A stretch of DNA of 64,000 bases, from assembly GCA_027923505.1 (NCBI GenBank), contig BROI01000009.1:992001-1056000 (forward strand), written 5' to 3'. The DNA is from Mayamaea pseudoterrestris. Lineage: Eukaryota. Both the position numbers and the translations under genes were made by a program. The notes under the pieces are model-generated. The model had not been told where the DNA came from. It ran no database searches and saw only the letters and a program-made list of their open reading frames with translations. Positions 2,022-19,137 of the stretch are shown here, in pieces (the first letter of the stretch is position 1; each line of letters starts with the position of its first letter).

Positions 2022-5000
2022 ATGTCTGACGGAAACAAAAAGACATTCGTCTACATCAAGGACCCCGAGTTTGCCTGGATTCCAGCGACTCTTCTAAAGA
2101 CGGAAGGTGACAAGGCTCACGTCAGTGTTCCGCAATACAAGGACGAGCAGTCCATCAGCTCGGATGGAGGCAGAGCTGCGACTAAAGAAGTACAAGATAT
2201 TGTCAACCTAAAGGACTATCCGCACAAAGTATTGCCACTGCAGAATGTTGATGCCAATGGAAATTTGTTGGTCTTTCCCGACATGGTCAAGCTCCCATAC
2301 CTTCATGAGGTAAGCATGCATGTGTATCATGAATGAATGAATGAATGAATTGATGCCATCGCAACGTTCTTAACTTCAACGTCATCGTCTGCATACCCAA
2401 TACCCACCCGTTTTCCATGTCACACGCAGGCCGGAATTTTGTACAACATGAAGGCTCGCCACAAGGAAGGTCATCCATACACTCGTACTGGAGACATTGT
2501 TATTGCAATCAATCCTTTCCAGTGGTTTACTGAGCTCTACACGGAAAAGAAGCGCATCTACTACTCCAACCGCTTGGTATGGCAGGAAGACAACGACAAG
2601 GATGCTCGCGACGGCATGGATCCGCACGTATACGAAGTCTCGGCCTTGTCCTACAAGGGACTTGCGTTTGGCGGCGAAGACCAATCGATTCTCGTTTCTG
2701 GCGAATCTGGTGCCGGCAAGACGGAGACGGTCAAGATTGCCATGAACCACATGGCCAGCGTTCAAAAGGGACCAGGCGCGTCAAGCTCGGATGCACTCGA
2801 TCCAGTCGTCAAGCGCGTCGTCGAGTCCAACCCCTTGCTCGAGGCCTTTGGAAATGCCAAGACGAGGCGCAATGACAACTCTAGTCGCTTTGGAAAGTAC
2901 TTGCAGTTGCAGTTTGACAACACGGAAGCTCACAAAATGGCATACGGCAATGTCAAGGAGAGCTTGTGCAAGCTTGCTGGATCCAAGTGCGACGTTTACT
3001 TGTTGGAAAAGAATCGTGTCGTTGGTCACGACAATGAAGGCGGCGAGCGCACCTACCACATTTTCTACCAGATCTTGGCCGCGCCAGAAGACAAGAAAAA
3101 GTGGATTTGGGACAAGCTTGCTGGGTCATCCAACAATAGCTTCAAGTACATTGGTCACTCGACAACGACTTCAATTGAAGGTATGACGGATGCTCAGCAC
3201 TTTGCTAATACTTGCGAAGTACTTGAGCTCATTGATGTCAAGGGTGAAAAGCTTCGCGCCATGATGCGCGCCATTGTAGCCGTCATGCAGCTTGGTAACA
3301 TAGAATTCGATTCGCTCAAGGGTGACAAGGACAAGTCGTCCATCAAGAACAAGGCGGCCGTCAAGGACTTGGCTGGATTGATGCATGTTGACGAGGAAGC
3401 CCTTTCCTTGTGCTTTACCGAGCGCACCATGAAGACCAAGACGGAGGAGTACAAGGTGCCACTCAACCCAGTTGCCGCGCAGGATTCAGCCGGTGCACTT
3501 GCCAAGGAGATTTACGGCAAGGTGTTCCTTTGGTTGGTTCGCGCCATTAACGCTGCCACGTGCGCGGAGGATAATTACAAGGATGGCACCATGTCCAAGT
3601 TTGGTATCATTGGACTATTGGACATTTTCGGATTCGAATCGTTTGTTGTCAACCGCTTTGAACAACTTTGCATCAACTACGCTAACGAAAAGCTTCAAGC
3701 CAAATTTACGGAAGACATATTCAGGTCCGTCCAGCAAGAGTATGAAGCCGAAGGAATCGAGTTGGCCGAGATTTGGTACGATGACAACACCGACGTGTTG
3801 GATCTCATTGAAGGCCGCACTGGACTCTTGGCTTTGTTGAACGAGGAATGCGTTCGCCCCAAGGGAAACGACGAGCAGTTCGTCCAAAAGGCGCTTCAGA
3901 TGAACCAAAAGTCTCCGTGCCTCATTGTCAACAAGATGGATCGCATGTCGTTTGGAATTCACCACTACGCCGGCAAGGTCATGTACGACGCCGACCAGTT
4001 TGTCAGTCGCAACCAAGATACTCTTCCGACTGATCTTGAGGACTTGTGCAAGCTATCCGATAATTTTATCATTTCGGCCAAGCTTGACACCATGGACGAA
4101 GGTCCTGCGCCATCAGGCCGCGGAGTCCGTCGCGCCAAGAGCAATCTTGTCGCGCCAACTGTGTGGGGCAAGTACAAGACGCAGTTGGCCTCGCTCATGG
4201 GCAATCTCCGCAAGACTAACTCGCGTTACATTCGCTGCATCAAGCCCAACATGGTCAAGAAGCCAGTCTTGATGGAGCACTTGCCGACAGTCGAGCAGCT
4301 TCGATGTGCCGGAGTGGTTGCGGCAGTGACTCTTTCGCGTTCTGCCTTCCCCAATCGCTTGGATAACCAGGTGACTCGCTTCCGTTACGCGACGCAGTGG
4401 GACGGTGCCAAGTTCCCTTCCAAGCGCAATAGTTCCATGACGCCGGAGGAAGCGCTTCGTGCTGACTGTGATGCCATTTTGACTTGCGCGCTCAAGGGCA
4501 AGGAGTTCAAGGATGACCGTGGCAAGGTGGTTAAAATGTTCGTCGTCGGCAAGACTCGCAGTTACTTTCGCGCCGGTGCCTTGGAGTATTTGGAGGCGAA
4601 TCGTCTCGAGAATGGTCTAGATGAGCCGGCCACGGTCATTCAAAAGTATGCTCGCCGCTTTTTGGTCAAGCTGCACTGGGACGACATGACGCAGGGCGCT
4701 CGCGAAGCTGAGCGTTTGGCGCGCGAGGAAGAGGAACGCAAGCGCATGGCCGAGCTCGAGTCACAGGCTCGCGAGTCGGAAGCGAAACGCAAGGAGCTGG
4801 AGCGTCGCAAGCGCGATGAAGCTGCCCGCAAGGCCAAGGAGGAACGCGAGCGCAAGGAAAAGCAGGAGCGTTTGGAACGCAAGCGTAAGGAGCGAGAGGA
4901 ACGCGAGCGCGTCGAGCGTGAACAGGCTGAGCAGGAAGACAAGATCAAGAGCCTCAAGAAGGAGATTCGTAAGCTCGAGAAGGAACTCGACGAAAAGAAG

Positions 5001-5603
5001 ATCAAGGCGGAGAAGAAGATTCGCGACGTTGAGTCGGAAGCCAAGGAACTGGAAGCTGAAGCAGCCGAGCTCCAGCAAAAGTACGACGAGCTCATGAAGC
5101 AGGCTGAAAGCATTGACAAGGGTGAGATTTCAACCAACAAGAAGCGACTCGATGAGTCGGAAAAGATTGTCGCCTACTTGCGCAAGGAGAACAAAAAGGT
5201 TCGCGACAAGACGGACAAGATGAAGGATGAGCTCGAAGACTTGAAGGAGCAAAACAACCGCCTCATTGAAGCCAATGCATCGGCCGGCGCTTCCTTGGAC
5301 TCGCTCGAGAAGCAGCGCAAAAACTTGGCGGACCACAACTCCAAGCTGGAGGATAGTTTGAAGAAATACAAGACACAAAACTCGCAATTGCAATCTGATC
5401 TTGACAACCGGGCAGCCTACCTAAAGGCGGAAACGAAGATTCGTGCCGAGTATGAGCGCGCCATGGAGTCAATTGTGGAAATGCTGGAGTCTCGCTGCAC
5501 CGACGGCAAGCTGGTGGAGGATGTGACTGCGGCGCAGCTCCAGTGCGAGGCGATTGCCCAGCACAAGACGAGCATGTTGAGTGCTCCCATTAGTCTCGAC
5601 TAG
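2022..5603 (+). CDS. Myosin heavy chain, join(2022..2309,2430..5603): motor, one IQ-like motif, ER/K-rich helix and coiled-coil tail
   Basis: P-loop GESGAGKT, LEAFGNAKT, NDNSSRFGK, DIFGFE, RCIKPN. The GTAAG...CAG intron 2310-2429 joins LPYLHE to AGILYNM in frame. Confidence 0.97.
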
Positions 5604-5951
5604 CGTTTGTCGCTGTCCTAATGGAGGAAGAAATGTCGCGGATGTGTGAGCGAGGCGAATAATCCTTGGTGGATTTTCACTTCGATAAATAAGAATATTA
5701 ATGTCAAGTCAAAGATTACTCGTAGGGAATCGCTCTTTCGTATAGAATCAAATCTTTATCAGCTTGATGAACATGCAGTTAGGAGGAACATACGCTTCAA
5801 TCAGCCAACGCACGAATAGCTAACATCTCAGCAGTGACGTCACAATCCGAAGCGTTTCGCCGAAAGCTGGCTTGCGTGCCACCATGAGGGTCGCATTTCG
5901 AACCTCTCCAACACCATCATTGCGAATATTGCAGTATATATCTATAGCATC

Positions 5952-8900
5952 ATGCGGCTAACAGCAAAGAATGTAAGACTCCTCTACGTAATCACTGCTG
6001 CATGGAGCAGGAGTCTTTGCACGACAGCCTCGGCTGGAGCAGTAAACGCAGCGGCATCAGTCGTCACCAACCAGCATGAAGCTTCCGTCTGTCAAGCATC
6101 GTCCGACGACGAAAACAATCCGCAATGCGTCGTTGCAGCACAAGAGCAAGTTACATCAAACGATACAATGCGAGTAAATCATGATTTGAATCAAAAAGAA
6201 GCTGACGCTTTGACTGCAAACGACGAAACCTGTCGACTCTACATGCTTGCTCCTTCCTCCGCGTCTTCCGAGTCAACGACTCGACTATTCACTGGCGTAT
6301 CACTGCAAAAGGGAGACTTGCTGCTACTACAAGAAGATACAATCAATAGTGACCTGCATGTCCGAATCACAGACGCGAATAAGAACGAGTGGAGCCCCTG
6401 GCATGACGTGCTTTGGTCGGCCACCAAAGATTTTATGACACCGGCCGCGAGTCGCAAGAGCACCAGCTATAATACTACTACGAGTACATCTGCACCACCC
6501 GCGACGTGGCTACTTCAAAACGATTTTCAGCTCGATTGGTTTGTTTCGGGATTGGCGAGTATGGCGCAGTGCGTTTTTGACGACTACGAGCTTGACGAAG
6601 ACGACCAAGACGAGGCAGCAAGTCCTAGCCGAGTCAACGTTGTTCCAGAGCTAGTTAACTCGCCAGTCACAACAACAATCAACAATCATATGAACGACCC
6701 GGCTTTTGATGGATCCTTTGCAAGCGCAGACAATCATGGCGCTCCCATTATCGTCTATCGCGCCATTCGAGACTTGAGAGTGGGCGACGAACTCTTTGTG
6801 GCATGTCACATTCATCATCATGATGCTGCTGATTTCCAATCAAAACAACGACAATCAGCAGCAGCAGCAGCAACTACTACTACTACTCCCGCGAATGATA
6901 GCCAAGCAGCCGCTACTGCTCGGGCTCAATTGAATCGCGACGGAGTCTGCATGGATGCCCTTAGCGTTCAGTCAACGACGCTGCCAAATACACGAGGGCA
7001 ACGAGGTGCCTTTACACGAAGAGCCATTCAGACTGGACAAGCCATTGCCAAGACTCCAGTCATTCCGCTCGACAAGTCGCAGCTGGAGATATCCAAGCAA
7101 GCGTACTACACTGACTTGGAGCAAGATATTGTTGACACGACCACGAGTATGAGCAATGCCAGCAACAATTTTCCAAGCCTTCTTTCGACGCGGCGCAAGC
7201 ATGGAATTTTGTATCAGGCAGACATTCCGGCAATCACGCAGTCACGGCAGCAATTGCTGTTAAATTACGTTTTTGGCAGTGAAAACAGTCATGTGCTACT
7301 GCTTCCAGTGGCTCCGGGTGCGAGTTTTATCAATCATGCAACATCGTCGACGAAGCAACGAGAACGACAGCGACGAGCGGCTGGAGATGGAGCGGCAACC
7401 AATGCAAGTGCAACAGCAGTTCCAGTCGCCAATGCGTATCTGCGATGGTGGTCGCCACTGTCGTCCGGCAGCGACTCCGAGCTGCAGCAGCATGGACTCA
7501 ACAACAATGCATACTACCACTCGCTTTCGGCGCACGACTTGCTTGACGAGTATGCGGAGAATGGCTTGTGGATGGAGATTGTTGCGTTGCGCGATTTGCA
7601 GCCGGGCGAGGAAGTGCTCATTGACTATGGATCTGATTGGGAAGTAGCGTGGCAAATGCATGCGGAGAAACTTGTTCATGAGCCGCAAGCGGAACGTGTC
7701 ACTGCAAGTCAATATGCTGCAACGATACTGGCGAGTATTGAGAACGCAACAATTAGCAGCAACCCTACTACAACTTTGATTCGAACGCTGGAGCAGCAGG
7801 AGTCTCAACCATACCCCAGCAATTTGGCAACGGCGTGTACATTTAGTTACACGCAAAAGGTTGAACACAAGGTTCAGTCGAGACTTCCAATTGTCTGGGA
7901 ACCGCAGGCAACCAAGGGATGCATGCGATTCTGCGATGTCCTGTCATATGCTGCCGATTCAAACACTTTTACGGTGCGAATATATCCTCGACTCGGTGAG
8001 CGATCCGAACAGCGCGTTCAGGCTGGTTGCGGCGGCAAGTCCAAACATTCCATGCCCAAGGAAGGTTTTGTCGTCGAACACTTTCCTGAGTTTGCCATTG
8101 CACTGGCCGACAAGCCATATTCGCTCGACTTTCAGCAGCCGCATGCCTTTCGCCACTTTATTGGCGTATCCGATCCAAACTTTTATCCACCGACGTGGAA
8201 TAAGAAGGATGCTCGTCCGAATGGTGACTTTATTCCAACTCCGCTCGGTCCAGGTCAGCTTGAAGTGATTCGATGGGCCGATACGGGCAAAGTGGTGACG
8301 TCAAACGCCTATCGAATTGGCATGCCAGAGAGCGTCCGCGAAACACTGCTGGAGTATTGTAGGCGCATGGGCGTGGTTGACATTTTCAAGCACATTACCA
8401 TGCAAGGCAACTCTCTTGACATTGGGACGGACACGTACTTGAATTTGGACGGCGAAGAGTGGTATTTACAACGACCCGACAAGAAGTGGAACTCGAATCT
8501 GCAGTGGCTCAGCCCAGGCGACAATGCGGCGCACAACCACTACTTGGAGGCGCTGAGTGTGGCTGGCTTTGACAGCGTATTGCAGAGTATTGGTGAGCGC
8601 TTTCAAATGGAGGGACTAGTAGCCTTTCACTTGACATTCATGGCCGTCTCACAGTCAACGCGCGGTTATCTCCACTACGACGTGACAAGAACTCAAGCCA
8701 AGGCGTTCAACGTTATCATTCCACTCATACTGGCAAACGAGACGGGTCCAGAGCTCGATTTACAAAACTATGACGAAGACGAGGAGGACGAGAGCAAGCA
8801 GGACGATCGCATTGGTCGTTATCGATACGAATATCATGTGGCATCCATGATGGGCGACGACGCGTTGCACGCGAGTAGTGCGGTCGACTACCGCGTCCAA

Positions 8901-9222
8901 AAGGAGATGCGACTGGCTGCAACAATTTATGTTGCCGGTAAGTGCTTTGTTGATCGCGGTCACTGCTGCATATCGGATTGTTGCGAATGTTTGTTCGGTA
9001 TACTAATCTCCGCTGTTTCAACCTCGCCAAGATGTGAACGAAGCCAATGTAAACGAGATCATGTCGCAATATACCCAAGCATACCCTCCAAATGATCGTG
9101 ACCTGCTTCTCAGTTGGGCTGGGACACACTGGAAGAAGGATGATCCATCCGCTCACCTACCCACGCCTCGCAAGGGCCATGTGCTGACAGAGCCGAAAGT
9201 GGATGCAACAGCTTCCATGTAA
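5952..9222 (+). CDS. Secretory diatom-type SET-domain protein (BacSET-like) with a C-terminal putative 2OG-Fe(II) dioxygenase domain, join(5952..8937,9032..9222)
   Basis: Hydrophobic N-terminus. Degenerate SET1 (RAIRDLRVGDELFV) and SET2 with FINH and ALRDLQPGEEVLIDYG. Intron 8938-9031 has GTAAG, branch site TACTAAT and AAG. The C-terminal domain has HYD...H...R. Confidence 0.85.
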
Positions 9223-9363
9223 TTAATCTTTGAATACCTTTTCGTATGGTCAATTTGAAATGCGGATGAATAAGCAATATCATATAAATTTACAGAAAGA
9301 TTTATAATAAATTAACTTGCTTATATACCCTACGCTTGGAAGTGACTCTCCACAACCACTTGT

Positions 9364-10965
9364 CTATTCATGCCACGAGAAGCGAAACCGATTAAGCATG
9401 TCCCTGCGGATAGGTTTCAGTTGTCCACTCTGGTAGAGGCTGCGTTGCTCATTGGCCCATGCAACCAGCGAGGGGTCTGCATTGTCAAGTGTAATTTCAG
9501 CGTGCCCATGTTTATGGTAAAAGTCAACTAGTTTCAGATAGCCATCGAGCCAGGGCGACTCCTCAACGACTGGTGGCGGCACGTAGAAGGGCGACTCTTC
9601 AACGACTGGTGGCGGCACGTAGAAACCTCGAAAAGGGATAGTTTCGGTATCATCAGACTCAGACTCGCTGTTCGCTGGGGAGGAAAAGCCCATGAGTTCA
9701 GCGAGTTCAGCAGCAGTAACCCTATGAGTTTTTGAATCTACCTCGGACTCGGCAGCATCAGCATTTTCCGTACTCTGCAACAAGCTTTGCCCTATTGGCT
9801 CGTCAGCATGCTCTGGACGGACTTGTCCAGTGCTTCTCTTATTGATCGCAGCATTGCTCATCCAGGTACTTGTGTTAGCTATCAACGGCATTCTTGGCAC
9901 CTCGGTCGTATCTACCGGTATGCTTTGCGCAAACCCCGGCTTGGCCAACTCAACGACATACTCTTGCTCGGGTTGTTCACTGTCATGTATATTTTTCGCA
10001 TCAATGCTCGACTGAATGCTAGTGTGATTCAAATTTGATGTATCTTCAGTCTCGACGACATCCGCAGTTGCACTCCAACAAAAGCCCAGCTCGTTCAACT
10101 TGTCAACACGATCCGGCCGAAGCTTTCCCTTGCTATACTCGACACGTTGTCGATGCACCCAGTTAACAAAGGGAGCATCGTACGTGGTCGTCTTGAGGGT
10201 AACGCGCGTATCACCCTCGTGAGCCTTGGCGTACTTTTCGAGCTTGTGAAACATGGTCATCCAATTGGCGTCTTGTTTCGTCCAGTCGAAGCCAAGCGCC
10301 TCCAAAGCTTCTCGCTTGTCGTTGGATAGCTTGTGCTGTTTGGTTCGCTGAATGGAAACCCAGTGTGCCAGCTCCAAGTCTTTTTCGTAATTCGCAGGCA
10401 CGTTGGTAGTGTTGTGTTTTCGCCAGTACGCTTCCAGTTTCTCATACATTTCGTCCCATGGTGACTGCTGCTTCCAGTCAAAGCCAATCTCGTCAAGCAT
10501 TTGCATGTGTTTTTGCGAAAGAGTCTCGTGTCGCTGCCGCTGCAATTTTACCCACTGCGCCAAGGCTGGATCATGCTGGTAGTTATGAGGCACTCTAGTA
10601 TGTCCGTAAATGACTTTGTACTTTTCAAGTTGCTCAAAAGAGTCTTTCCAGCTTCGTCGTGTCTTCGTCTGCGTTTTGTTCTGCGTCACTTGCTGCTGGT
10701 GTTGCGGATCTCGATCTTGAGTCCGGTTAAGATGTTCTAAATGGCCATGAGATGCCTTCTGTTGGTAATTCATCAATAACTGGCCCTGTATCTTGCTGCT
10801 CGGAAAATTATCCAGGTATGTTGGAGCTTTGATGGGCCCATGCACGAGGGCGTATCGACGCTGACTTGTTGCTGGCAGCTGGAAAGCAACGACTGGAATC
10901 CAAGCATCGACCACGCTACTCACAAGGATACTTAGTGTCAAGTAGTGTAGCCGGAAAGCCCTCAT
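9364..10965 (-). CDS. Helicase-associated (HA) repeat protein, 4 repeats, predicted signal peptide
   Basis: Four repeats of W..(F/Y)..L..Y...HG...VP...L..WV..QR...L...GF.W type. Start uncertain (ATG 10965 or 11013). Confidence 0.88.
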   Translation of the reverse strand: MRAFRLHYLTLSILVSSVVDAWIPVVAFQLPATSQRRYALVHGPIKAPTYLDNFPSSKIQGQLLMNYQQKASHGHLEHLNRTQDRDPQHQQQVTQNKTQTKTRRSWKDSFEQLEKYKVIYGHTRVPHNYQHDPALAQWVKLQRQRHETLSQKHMQMLDEIGFDWKQQSPWDEMYEKLEAYWRKHNTTNVPANYEKDLELAHWVSIQRTKQHKLSNDKREALEALGFDWTKQDANWMTMFHKLEKYAKAHEGDTRVTLKTTTYDAPFVNWVHRQRVEYSKGKLRPDRVDKLNELGFCWSATADVVETEDTSNLNHTSIQSSIDAKNIHDSEQPEQEYVVELAKPGFAQSIPVDTTEVPRMPLIANTSTWMSNAAINKRSTGQVRPEHADEPIGQSLLQSTENADAAESEVDSKTHRVTAAELAELMGFSSPANSESESDDTETIPFRGFYVPPPVVEESPFYVPPPVVEESPWLDGYLKLVDFYHKHGHAEITLDNADPSLVAWANEQRSLYQSGQLKPIRRDMLNRFRFSWHE

Positions 10966-11208
10966 GGTGTGTAGTTGCAGGTTCGATTGAGTGGGTAAGG
11001 AACGAGTGCTCATCGTCAAAGTCGCAACCGAAGGGTGACAAGGTTCTCAAAAATGAATGTCGCAAAGGTTCTCTCTATAACCGCTCCGACGAGATGACGT
11101 TTGAAAGCCTTTCGAAGCGCGACGACGACATCATTCATCCATCACGAAAGCTCCGCCTGGAGGCTTCCCTTGTTCCACTTTACTGCTGCCTTTTTGCTTG
11201 CTACCATT

Positions 11209-16600: not shown

Positions 16601-19137
16601 TTGATGGAGGAGGGTCTGCTAGGAGCAGAAAACGTCGACGCCAAAACCGTCGCAAACGGTCGCGGACCGACACCAACGCTCAGCGTGATCGCTCCGGTTC
16701 TGACAGTGACTCGAGCGTGGAATCAATTGACGACGACCATGGAGATAATGAAGACTGCGTTGCAAGTGCTCCTCAGTTTCGACGGGGCGTCGTTCCAGAG
16801 GAGCAGGGGGCAGCGGACGCAGCTACTACAGGCAATCAGAACAAGCGAGTAAGGTTCGAGTCAGCGGAAGACCATTTGGATTCAACAGAAGCCTCGGATA
16901 GACTCGGCAGCCACCGCAACGTGGAGGTCGAGACGGTCAACGAGTCGGACGAAGAGGAAGACGAGGAGAACCGAACGCCAAGCACTGCTAACAATGGGAG
17001 CCGGTCTCGAGAGGAGCTTTTGCCAGGCTTCAATCCATTGGAGAACGATGGAATCGAGATGGCGGAGGAAGTTAACAACGCGTATTCCTCCACGCTCGAG
17101 AACGAACCATCCATTGGCGGCGCACAGGTTCGAGCGATCCTTGGTCATGAATGGACTGAAGGGCGACTGCGACTGCAAGTCGTTTGGAATACAGAGCAGA
17201 AATCCTGGGAAGAGCTTCGTGACATGAAGGAAGATTATCCAAGGATGACGGCTCAGTACATCCTCGACAAGAACGTAACTCGAGCCAGAGCAACCGATCG
17301 AACGCTTTCATGGGCTACAAAGGTTATTAGAGACTTGAATCGAGCCGTGAGGCGAGTGACGAGACTATATGACTTTCATCTGGACGACAACGACGAAGTT
17401 TACGCTGTTCGACGGACTCAGAATCGAAAGAAGAAGAAGACGTACACGGCTAAACCAGAGTTTAAGTACGGCGTTCAAGTACCCAAGAACGTTCGAGAGG
17501 CTATTCGATTGGATGAAGCTAACGGCGATACGCATTGGCAAGACGCTATCAAGGCCGAGGTTGGATCGTTGACGGAGCTTGAGTGCTTCGATTTCAAGGG
17601 CGCCGGTTTCGTACCCGACTCTTGCTATCAGAAGACTACGCTCATGATGATCTTTACTGTCAAACAAGATATGCGGCGCAAGGCAAGGCTTGTTGCTGGA
17701 GGCCATTTGATTGATGCTTTGGATCATAACGTATACTCGTCGACGGTAAAAGGCATCAGCGTGAAGCTTCTCCACGTCATCGCTCACAAAGCGAATCTTC
17801 GACAAGTTTGCGGCGACGTTGCTAATGCTTACGTGAACGCTTTCACTAACGAAAAGGTATACGCTATCGCAGGACCAGAGTTTGGACCAGAGCTTGAAGG
17901 CAAGGTGGTCATTATCGTTAAGGCTCTTTACGGGCTATCGTCTTCGGGCGAACGATGGCACGCGCACTTTGCCGATACGCTCAGAGGCCTTGGCTTTGTT
18001 CCTACTGGATATGATAAGGATGTTTGGATCCGTCTTGCGGAAGACGGCAGCCATTATGAATACGTTTGCACTCACGTCGACGATTTCATGTTGGTCGGCA
18101 AGAATCCAGAGGCAATTATGGAGGCCATTCAACTCGTCTATTCAGTCAAATCCATCGGTCCTCCCGATTACTACTTGGGTAATGATTATAAGAAGGATCG
18201 GAAGGGACAATGGTGCATCGGTTGCAAGAAGTACTTGACGGAAGCAATCAAACGGGTCGAGCGCATGTTTGGAATGCTCAAGAAGTATACAAATCCAACT
18301 GAAACAGGCGACCACCCCGAAATTGATACGAGTACAATGCTTAATGATGATGAGCATCGAAAGTATCAAATGTTGATTGGAATGCTCGTTTGGATCGTTA
18401 CGATTGGACGAATTGATGTCGCTCACGCCACGTCCTCCCTCTCGAGATTTACTGCAGCTCCAAGGGACGGTCATCTCAAGCGAGTGCTGCGAGTATTTGG
18501 GTATCTAAAGAAGCGAGCGAATCGTAGGATCGTCGTTGATTCAAGAGACCCAGTTTATTCAGGCGCTGAAGACTCGCGAGCGATGGATCTTACCAAGGAG
18601 CTATCCGAGCAATACGCTAACGCGTTCGAGGAGATTGACGCGAGCCTTCCGCCAGCTCTTATAGACGAGATGCTCATTACAGTCTTTGTTGATTCTGATC
18701 ATGCACACGATCAGTTAACAAGACGGTCCATAACGGGGATGCTGATTGTCGTCGGGCGGACGCCAGTCATGTATATGAGCAAGCGTCAAGGGGCAATAGA
18801 GACGTCCACATACGGAGCTGAATTCTGTGCGATGAAGACAGCTGTAGAGGAGCTCATTGCTGTACGTTATATGCTTCGATGCCTCGGCGTCAAGGTGTCG
18901 ACGGCCAGTTTCATTTGTGGTGACAATATGGGCGTTATTCAGAACGCGACCTTGAGCAGCAGCGTCTTGAAGAAGAAGCATGTTGCTATTGCTTACCATA
19001 AAACGCGAGAAGCGTCAGCGGCAGGGATCTGCCACCCTATCAAGATTGATGGATTGGACAACTTTGCAGACTGCCTCACGAAGGGGCAAACGCAGAAGGC
19101 GTTCAGTAAGTGTGTCGGCGGATTCATGCATGGCTAA
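13693..19137 (+). CDS. Copia gag-pol polyprotein, 1814 aa
   Basis: Protease AIIDPGS, integrase DTFFS...TDNA...QNQAE, chromo-like segment, RT KARLVAGG/KALYGL/HVDD, RNase H FVDSDHA/STYGAEF/NFADCLTK. Confidence 0.97.
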   Translation: MEAIVIALAGLTDEYVAALAAGGIISKDDLGIVSRLDITEALPQAPVMVRRKLELIGDYVFRGQELTVETTIPSIREYLSNQGNPQQPAGAPAAAAVAAAPKNNLRITVNPLDPFSGAIMDWERWEIKARDTINQSLYSTLLTTEPSGNANAQTASREFYSMLSRAVADGDAYHIVEGVENQDGFIAWKKLVDWYTSPVTGRSLVQFHRKKLQDARLDEDCTASSYINTFMTSSRKLDSLNAGLTDSIKLQDFLEGIVDEDYDVVVQGMKRQVGLTFDDAVKAIRGREQDLVDKANATGTHTPSTKARRAPGGANNNGSRNTIPFIPNFLLNTIKQDHIRKNLLKWRAIRNDEGREIRPDKLIPDPDAGGHQGGDNNDRATQGSNKSHTATPKSARKSGKRGLKSRRVATVSAPSVKARQTKTKLTGLGDSALKVFLKDEDEHAEDSCSDDEDDGVNEQADQNESSVSKSLRRRKKATKKLATKTRRNPRSRRGRSADRPRAIIDPGSEINIIGGVGWEVIAAVNMSARVDGALTGMEGKRLPIVCAVTVYEHPSKGPILLGVGSAVWDESPAQTESLFNSHMLREAGVTVEDKAERDGGASLIEVEGTTIKLDFVDEKTLSFYIRRPTQKELTELNVLWLIPRKFGLESGHKFTPSRRAPAESIPEKADWRIRLGNCPEFVAAKTLEATTQLCEAPVEMENRESPRQHRKQRLLALHPRRVEGRTDSDTFFSTVKSIRGYMCVQIFVAVTSKFLFARCMRKESESHGAYQDFIRYIGAPNVLITDNAQTQIGKKWTATSRNLAVRQKNTVPHNQQQNQAEGAVHLVKKRVILVLRAAQAPLVFWCYCLLFVIDCLNFTARKELEWRTPHERMYGMTPDISVFRFSFWQPVWYYEPTASFPHKNFLPGRFVGIAWDHGDAFTYRIWTTPEGVWEKGRELIRNVVQPRRDNEEVCSLIDIKETDLLLERQLDGGGSARSRKRRRQNRRKRSRTDTNAQRDRSGSDSDSSVESIDDDHGDNEDCVASAPQFRRGVVPEEQGAADAATTGNQNKRVRFESAEDHLDSTEASDRLGSHRNVEVETVNESDEEEDEENRTPSTANNGSRSREELLPGFNPLENDGIEMAEEVNNAYSSTLENEPSIGGAQVRAILGHEWTEGRLRLQVVWNTEQKSWEELRDMKEDYPRMTAQYILDKNVTRARATDRTLSWATKVIRDLNRAVRRVTRLYDFHLDDNDEVYAVRRTQNRKKKKTYTAKPEFKYGVQVPKNVREAIRLDEANGDTHWQDAIKAEVGSLTELECFDFKGAGFVPDSCYQKTTLMMIFTVKQDMRRKARLVAGGHLIDALDHNVYSSTVKGISVKLLHVIAHKANLRQVCGDVANAYVNAFTNEKVYAIAGPEFGPELEGKVVIIVKALYGLSSSGERWHAHFADTLRGLGFVPTGYDKDVWIRLAEDGSHYEYVCTHVDDFMLVGKNPEAIMEAIQLVYSVKSIGPPDYYLGNDYKKDRKGQWCIGCKKYLTEAIKRVERMFGMLKKYTNPTETGDHPEIDTSTMLNDDEHRKYQMLIGMLVWIVTIGRIDVAHATSSLSRFTAAPRDGHLKRVLRVFGYLKKRANRRIVVDSRDPVYSGAEDSRAMDLTKELSEQYANAFEEIDASLPPALIDEMLITVFVDSDHAHDQLTRRSITGMLIVVGRTPVMYMSKRQGAIETSTYGAEFCAMKTAVEELIAVRYMLRCLGVKVSTASFICGDNMGVIQNATLSSSVLKKKHVAIAYHKTREASAAGICHPIKIDGLDNFADCLTKGQTQKAFSKCVGGFMHG

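Follow-up and report, generated by a model that had tools for sequence, protein, structure and literature searches.

Collagen lysyl hydroxylases (PLOD/LH) are multi-domain Fe(II)/2-oxoglutarate (2OG) enzymes that form 5-(delta-)hydroxylysine on proteins in the lumen of the endoplasmic reticulum (ER), while the BesD/HalB-type enzymes of bacteria act on the side chains of lysine and ornithine. Passages in two published sources (PMC4557024, PMC5501833) describe the lysines of silaffins as di- or trimethylated, the trimethylated ones being also hydroxylated at C-delta and phosphorylated, and they present epsilon-N,N,N-trimethyl-delta-hydroxylysine and 3,4-dihydroxyproline as long known from diatom walls. 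Dihydroxyproline is there called a general feature of these walls (PMC5501833). For methylation, the closest described proteins are BacSET, the diatom-specific SET methyltransferases (Nemoto et al. 2020, Mar Biotechnol, pmid 32488507), which the passages citing them portray as diatom-restricted SET proteins with ER targeting. Wall proteins and polyamines are the proposed substrates of this SET family (passages in PMC11151724 and PMC11554505), and for Seminavis 24 genes for diatom-specific SET methyltransferases are stated to reach their maximum at cytokinesis, along with the cell-wall genes (bioRxiv 10.1101/2020.11.23.393678). The JMJD2/KDM4 family is listed in a passage of PMC2938197 as combining SET with a JmjC-type dioxygenase on one polypeptide. 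Here we describe a gene of the diatom Mayamaea pseudoterrestris, located on the forward strand at 5952..9222 of a stretch of 64,000 nucleotides (contig BROI01000009.1, positions 992,001 to 1,056,000; hereafter the window), which joins a SET domain to a C-terminal domain that almost certainly has an Fe(II)/2OG oxygenase fold. On balance, and with some reservation, we favour the reading that its product is a secretory bifunctional methyltransferase/oxygenase acting on proteins.

The product has 1058 residues. It begins with a signal-like N-terminus, which is followed by a degenerate SET/PR-like unit, the true SET domain, a small disulfide-rich beta-barrel and a C-terminal domain of about 295 residues. 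Judging from the passages that cite BacSET, the SET half belongs to the diatom-specific SET methyltransferases, a family that has been published. A sequence-only reading of this DNA had linked such proteins to the silica wall, and in this it agrees with the citing passages, in which the family peaks with cell-wall genes. The likeness to BacSET consists of the SET domain, named sources that are all diatoms, the proposed role as modifiers of wall proteins or polyamines and the peak with cell-wall genes. The difference lies in the C-terminal oxygenase domain, which goes unmentioned in the citing passages; the C-terminal region as given in the original paper falls outside them. No description of this domain was found in the searchable full text, nor any enzyme assigned to lysine or proline hydroxylation in diatoms, most subscription journals being outside that text. 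JmjC-SET fusions are nuclear chromatin proteins with a JmjC barrel, whereas the diatom protein has a probably secretory setting and no JmjC among the listed structural neighbours. A probably luminal SET protein with a PhyH-like oxygenase is a combination different from the nuclear JmjC fusions.

The C-terminal domain covers residues 751-1045 (8202..9180, forward strand) and is split by an intron. The sequence-only reading had proposed an extra domain beginning near 8230 and had assigned it to the 2OG-Fe(II) hydroxylases. The domain exists, but it starts nearer 8202 and ends at about 9180, across the intron. AlphaFold2, supplied with an alignment of 65 sequences, modelled it as a double-stranded beta-helix with high scores (predicted local distance difference test, pLDDT, 94.2; predicted template modelling score, pTM, 0.91). 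Foldseek against PDB returned 30 listed rows, all of them Fe(II)/2OG enzymes or halogenases, the best being the CurA halogenase domain (E 2.5e-7, probability 1.00). When the 1000 best chains from Foldseek were realigned with VIA-align, all 50 listed rows were Fe/2OG enzymes, with Z 10.8-12.3 over 186-227 aligned residues. The top of this list is formed by CurA Hal (Z 12.3, 200 aligned, root-mean-square deviation, rmsd, 3.6), SnoK (12.1, 218 aligned) and AsqJ (12.0, 219 aligned), and human PHYH reaches 10.9. An independent search of 48,161 representative chains found 85 at Z >=8, with SnoK on top (Z 12.1, 218 aligned), and 47 of the 50 listed rows were named Fe/2OG-type enzymes; the remaining three were a trypanosome RESC subunit, the N-terminal domain of vaccinia C16 and an uncharacterised protein. 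No JmjC chain was named among the 50 rows listed in either search, although absence from such a list is not exclusion. The fold proposed from sequence is therefore borne out by a model with a pLDDT of 94.2 and by matches at Z of about 12 to PhyH-like enzymes, which form the nearest structural group according to the model.

At the level of sequence, the domain stands apart. Neither the whole protein nor its fragments gave a Pfam family over this region, phmmer against PDB sequences left it unmatched, and tblastn against phage records gave no match; cyanophage-like dioxygenases have been noted in diatoms (a passage of PMC2938197). Because it fails every curated sequence model tried, we file the domain as a new sequence family within the known Fe/2OG superfamily, PhyH-like in structure. 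The PhyH-like oxygenases (PHYH, AsqJ, SnoK/SnoN, EasH, PrhA/AusE and the CurA halogenase) have the same fold (186-227 residues aligned, Z 10.8-12.3) and carry the HxD...H...R residues in the same order on the barrel, but identity in the structural alignments is 5-15% and no Pfam or profile match joins them to the diatom domain. Further differences are that the diatom protein comes from a eukaryote, is probably luminal and has protein-modifying domains as partners. With PLOD/LH it shares the proposed chemistry; none of these enzymes is named among the listed fold rows, there is no sequence similarity, and the proposed diatom substrate would be methylated lysine in wall proteins other than collagen. 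HalB is also a structural neighbour (7u6i_A, Z 10.2, 191 aligned), and by language-model features the HalD/BesD clusters rank among the nearest (0.91). However, the diatom domain keeps Asp910, the corresponding Pfam model PF23169 is unmatched in 65 members, and the BesD/HalB-type enzymes are bacterial and work on free amino acids, unlike the diatom protein.

The putative active site could be placed on the model, and the positions of the motifs given by the sequence-only reading were right. The proposed first two metal ligands are in the motif H908-Y-D910 (8673..8681, with H908 at 8673-8675 and D910 at 8679-8681), after the first long barrel strand. The proposed distal ligand H973 (8868..8870) lies in model strand 233-235, and R987 (8910..8912), the proposed binder of the C5-carboxylate of 2OG, stands at the very start of the last barrel strand (247-255); all three are on the forward strand. 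In the canonical order of the superfamily, HxD follows strand II, the distal His is on strand VII and an Arg or Lys is found at strand VIII, and the order on the modelled barrel fits this. Across a 37-sequence alignment D910, G968, H973 and R987 are invariant and H908 is kept in at least 90% of sequences. To see more of the family, we ran a hidden Markov model (HMM) built from this alignment over 272 collected proteins and obtained 340 domain copies, 256 of which cover all four positions. The quartet H-D-H-R is intact in 228 of these 256 copies, so the conservation that the earlier reading named as a check does hold; position by position, the residue is kept in 282/308 covered copies for H908, 286/306 for D910, 251/272 for H973 and 246/272 for R987.

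The 28 exceptions are distributed unevenly. Twenty-four belong to proteins with 2-4 copies of the domain, where 22 of them stand beside an intact copy, and only four to single-copy proteins, while 219 of 225 proteins have at least one intact quartet. As the losses are mostly in extra tandem copies, the pattern is what a functioning catalytic site with a few degenerated duplicates would give. Tandem arrays of 2-4 are seen in P0076, P0077, P0078, P0084, P0104 and others, where one copy retains H-D-H-R and additional copies have lost it; from their sequences, the copies without the quartet look like pseudo-enzymes beside an active copy. We also considered a halogenase. Fe/2OG halogenases have Ala or Gly instead of the carboxylate ligand, and this reading was rejected since Asp910 is kept, with D present in 286 of the 306 covered copies mentioned above; this argues for a site of the hydroxylase type. 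Taken together, the C-terminal domain is quite probably an active oxygenase.

Regarding the methyltransferase half, two SET-like units had been proposed from the sequence and only the second turned out to be a true SET domain. It was recognised by Pfam as PF00856 at residues 351-560 (7002..7631, forward strand; the fold spans 336-565), with 39 bits against a cut-off of 22.4, and all 52 aligned homologues match SET as well. Its FINH motif, which we take to be the NH motif of SET domains, has H462 invariant in the 52 sequences; in EEVLIDYG, presumably the ELxxDY motif that carries the catalytic Tyr, Y559 is kept in at least 90% and G560 is invariant. The catalytic motifs, INH and EEVLIDYG, are thus intact. 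The best fold match is 4rz0_B (Z 8.3, 110/110 residues aligned, rmsd 2.7), followed by SET8 and MLL1 at Z 6.2-6.7; phmmer found no match for the SET region among PDB sequences.

The situation was less clear for the first unit, residues ~90-297 (6219..6842, forward strand). Its Pfam score for SET is under the cut-off of 22.4 (E 0.075, 13.9 bits), and hhalign aligned it to the true SET domain with a probability of 88% over 30 columns. In the model of the SET units together with the barrel (residues 85-760, pLDDT 79.3, pTM 0.84) its fold matches PR/SET domains at Z 5.2-5.9, the best being the PR domain of PRDM5 (Z 5.9, 112 aligned, rmsd 3.2) and PRDM2 (Z 5.6). The unit is conserved in 76 of the 272 collected proteins. 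At the position of the catalytic Tyr it has Cys285, and a Cys is found there in 49 of 52 aligned homologues. Given the score below the Pfam cut-off and the replacement of Tyr by Cys285, we read this unit as a degenerate, SET-like and apparently non-catalytic member.

We then asked how widely the C-terminal domain occurs and with which partners. With residues 601-995 as the query, 1.84 billion representatives were searched exhaustively by HMMER, which recovered 504 proteins (representative clusters) at E <=0.001, 328 at <=1e-10 and 161 at <=1e-30. The databases label the homologues only as 'hypothetical' or 'SET domain-containing'. Most matches come without a source name, but those that have one are all from diatoms, both centrics and pennates (Mayamaea, Skeletonema, Cylindrotheca, Stephanocyclus, Seminavis, Amphora, Fistulifera, Stauroneis and Conticribra), and the family is likely restricted to this group. 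A Pfam scan of 55 members gave no family for 37, SET for 14, ShK with 2OG-FeII_Oxy_3 of the prolyl 4-hydroxylase (P4H) type for two, ShK alone for one and an MBD-like match alone for one. Weak to moderate Pfam matches to MBD (methyl-CpG-binding domain) were seen in P0128 and P0163; in addition to SET and the new domain, P0163 contains ankyrin repeats.

Among the 272 collected proteins, SET and the new domain occur together in 122, with SET first in 121 of them, so that the order of methyltransferase and oxygenase-fold domain on one polypeptide is conserved across diatoms. The domain is found alone in 145 proteins, 33 of these with tandem copies, and five combine 1-3 copies of it with P4H. In the latter (P0041, P0068, P0073, P0120 and P0166, all from other diatoms) the new domains come first, then ShK and finally a C-terminal P4H (PF13640). 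Compared with the M. pseudoterrestris domain, the copies in these ShK and P4H proteins (e.g. P0041 of Skeletonema menzelii) are 39-41% identical, but the partner is P4H, not SET, and the copies fall in another clade. It is possible that they represent an enzyme set forming dihydroxyproline. From the 338 matches, the 209 copies that cover at least 80% of the profile were taken for a FastTree tree rooted at the midpoint. One clade (141 tips, support 0.88) holds 84 of the 90 SET-adjacent copies, and another (56 tips, support 0.75) holds all five P4H-linked copies together with most tandem copies. This topology points to two broad subfamilies.

The signal-like N-terminus occupies residues 1-28 (5952..6035, forward strand) and shows a basic start, the hydrophobic stretch VRLLYVITAA and small residues ending in ...ASA. 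The sequence-only reading had noticed it, and it is indeed present, but its strength is moderate. The ...ASA site is not followed by the Phe expected for plastid targeting, and the rest of the protein has no further window resembling a transmembrane segment on the Kyte-Doolittle scale. To judge the family as a whole, we took members that start with M and are longer than 250 residues, looked for a 10-residue window in their first 40 positions and used internal 40-residue windows as controls. A hydrophobic window of at least 2.0 was found in 125 of 217 members compared with 120 of 1085 random control windows. Moreover, invariant cysteines run throughout the N-terminal unit and the middle domain, and ShK and P4H, to which the family is elsewhere fused, are luminal or extracellular modules. 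Because of the enriched hydrophobic N-termini, the invariant cysteines and the fusions to ShK and P4H across the family, the protein is likely secretory.

Between the SET domain and the C-terminal domain lies a middle beta-barrel at residues ~608-724 (7773..8123, forward strand), defined from the model and from conservation and present in 115 of the 272 collected proteins. The model gives it five strands, and conservation shows four invariant cysteines (629, 657, 661 and 693) as well as a set of conserved aromatic residues, Y621, F631, W649, F/Y673 and Y723. The best fold matches are Tudor barrels at Z 4.4-4.8, which is the background level of the tool; 55 of the 56 residues of the SMN Tudor domain were aligned with an rmsd of 2.1. 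Tudor Pfam models found no match among 52 members. The Tudor-like character of this barrel is to be taken as a lead from the model only. If real, a Tudor-like reader of methyl-lysine would stand between the methyltransferase and the oxygenase.

The gene model agrees with the span 5952..9222 proposed earlier and consists of two coding exons on the forward strand. In the list of open reading frames (ORFs), a frame of 1047 codons starts at 5952. The first exon (5952..8937) encodes residues 1-995 and the first base of codon 996, and it ends at a donor read as G|GTAAGT at 8937. The intron that follows (8938..9031) has 94 nucleotides, GT..AG ends and its acceptor AG at 9030-9031, and the second exon (9032..9222) encodes residues 996-1058, with the stop codon at 9220-9222. 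Joining 5952..8937 to 9032..9222 keeps the frame, homologues align unbroken over the junction, and the spliced translation of 1058 residues is identical letter for letter to the NCBI protein P0001, 'hypothetical protein MPSEU_000544900 [Mayamaea pseudoterrestris]'. We compared the region 5600..9500 with contigs of four public runs (X1-X4). One contig each from X3 and X4 lacks exactly the 94 intron bases and ends at about 9276-9293, whereas the contigs of X1 and X2 continue through the intron and past it. The spliced form thus exists in two of the four runs, and the gene is probably transcribed. Since the kind of library is unrecorded for all four, the contigs show the joined form, probably transcription, and nothing further.

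Relative to the window, the contigs of X1-X4 show substitutions in clusters and small indels, either in-frame or compensating, within 5935-7660 (e.g. 5961-6022, 6980-7016 and 7168-7329), and among 40 of the 84 listed differences few fall in the region of the C-terminal domain. They probably represent allelic variation concentrated in the N-terminal half. A tblastn search of the 64-kb window found no second copy of the C-terminal domain; a single match at 16974-17126 (33% over 55 residues, E 0.045) is most likely due to chance. As for the neighbours, the upstream ORF at 2448-5603 (forward strand, 1051 residues) resembles a motor head of the myosin type with a long, charged coiled coil behind it, its GESGAGKTE P-loop being presumably the signature of such motors. 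The convergent downstream ORF at 9364-11013 (reverse strand, 549 residues) is hydrophobic near its N-terminus and repeats a unit of the type 'W..L..Y....G...VP' several times.

How could such a protein work? Of the refuting conditions set out in the sequence-only reading, none that is open to computation came true, and the chemistry it proposed for one polypeptide, methylation and hydroxylation of lysines, is the best-fitting candidate. We propose that it would act in the lumen of the ER or Golgi and that both catalytic domains would serve the same client proteins, the SET domain methylating epsilon-amines of lysines and the oxygenase domain hydroxylating a side-chain carbon. The most attractive product would be epsilon-N,N,N-trimethyl-delta-hydroxylysine, which is present in diatom walls and silaffins. 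That the oxygenase is a lysine delta-hydroxylase of wall proteins is, nevertheless, a tentative assignment. An extended version, which we regard as speculative and as somewhat less probable again, would arrange the domains as a luminal writer-reader-oxidiser line. The SET domain would trimethylate lysines of silaffin-like proteins, the Tudor-like barrel would hold the methyl-lysine and the oxygenase would hydroxylate C-delta, making trimethyl-delta-hydroxylysine, while the P4H-fused sister subfamily would supply the second hydroxyl of 3,4-dihydroxyproline.

Several observations weigh against the reading of the product as a secretory methyltransferase/oxygenase of proteins. None of the 65 family members matches the 2OG models of Pfam (PF13640, PF05721, PF03171, PF23169 and others) even at E <=10, no oxygenase came up for the C-terminal domain when PDB sequences were searched with a profile, and hhalign against the P4H domains of the related diatom proteins found nothing. 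The clustering of H908, D910 and H973 at a metal site is taken from the order of the strands in the model, and the spacing from the distal His to the Arg is 14 residues; it is 9-12 in PHD2, PHYH and AsqJ. The N-terminal signal is moderate, its best 10-residue window reaching 1.76 by the Kyte-Doolittle heuristic, and the runs that show splicing, X3 and X4, are those whose library kind is unrecorded. Finally, in 150 of the 272 collected proteins the new domain is fused to P4H or stands alone, and for this reason lysine is not the only plausible substrate and the family cannot be linked exclusively to it.

The last point leads to the alternative that survives best, although we still consider it rather unlikely: an active oxygenase that modifies another residue or position, e.g. 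C3 of proline, yielding 3,4-dihydroxyproline in concert with P4H, or an unmethylated lysine. The fusion to SET would then reflect shared clients and not a shared residue. Proteins of the Skeletonema type, with two or three new domains ahead of ShK and a true prolyl 4-hydroxylase (PF13640), speak for this, as do the proline hydroxylases among the structural neighbours (7dt0_E at Z 10.9, 7dzz_A at Z 10.4 and 4iw3_A at Z 10.2) and the dihydroxyproline reported as general in diatom walls (PMC5501833, in the passage mentioned above). Judging from the P4H fusions, the second hydroxyl of proline may come from the sister subfamily, and the same fusions equally warn against lysine as the sole candidate. 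On the other hand, all five P4H-linked copies are in the clade of 56 tips, apart from the 84 of 90 SET-adjacent copies, and with this separation the SET-linked subfamily, including the M. pseudoterrestris gene, may have a specificity of its own.

It is improbable that the C-terminal domain is a pseudo-enzyme, a non-catalytic beta-helix that binds a substrate or a partner. The 28 of 256 fully covered copies which lost part of the quartet, the lack of a match to known 2OG sequence families and solved non-catalytic look-alikes in the fold list, such as the vaccinia C16 N-terminal domain at Z 9.6, would fit it. However, the M. pseudoterrestris copy itself has all four residues, an intact quartet is present in 219 of 225 proteins and the losses are concentrated in extra tandem copies.

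We give very little weight to an oxygenase working on a small molecule or on long-chain polyamines instead of proteins. Among solved structures, the closest are for the most part enzymes that tailor small molecules (SnoK, AsqJ, EasH, CurA Hal), language-model features point, as a lead only, to bacterial 2OG oxygenases and to the HalD/BesD halogenases of free amino acids (0.91-0.93), and polyamines are among the substrates proposed for the SET family (a passage of PMC11554505). But the fusion partners, SET, P4H, ShK and ankyrin, are protein-modifying or protein-binding, and the structural ranking mirrors what has been crystallised, not the class of substrate. Least probable of all is a demethylase of N-methyl-lysine that hydroxylates the methyl group and pairs a writer with an eraser, for which one could cite the SET-JmjC-type dioxygenase fusions of the JMJD2/KDM4 family (listed in a passage of PMC2938197) and the AlkB-type demethylases among the fold neighbours (NMAD-1 at Z 10.0, AlkB at Z 9.4), but no JmjC chain is named among the 50 listed rows of either fold search, the nearest structures are PhyH-like hydroxylases, and wall proteins, as described in a passage of PMC4557024, keep their methyl groups and also bear a carbon-bound hydroxyl.

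Our preferred reading thus remains that of a secretory methyltransferase/oxygenase acting on proteins. The gene shows that the SET methyltransferases of diatoms suspected of modifying wall proteins usually carry an unannotated oxygenase-fold domain with a conserved site. The family, with at least 504 sequence clusters and no Pfam model, offers concrete, clonable candidates for both the lysine and the proline hydroxylations of wall proteins, and it has a defined site of four residues for mutation. Provided that it is active, the domain could also serve well in preparing silaffin peptides with native-like modifications for biomimetic silica. And if the writer-reader-oxidiser arrangement is true, this unnamed domain family would be the missing hydroxylase toolkit of diatom biosilica.

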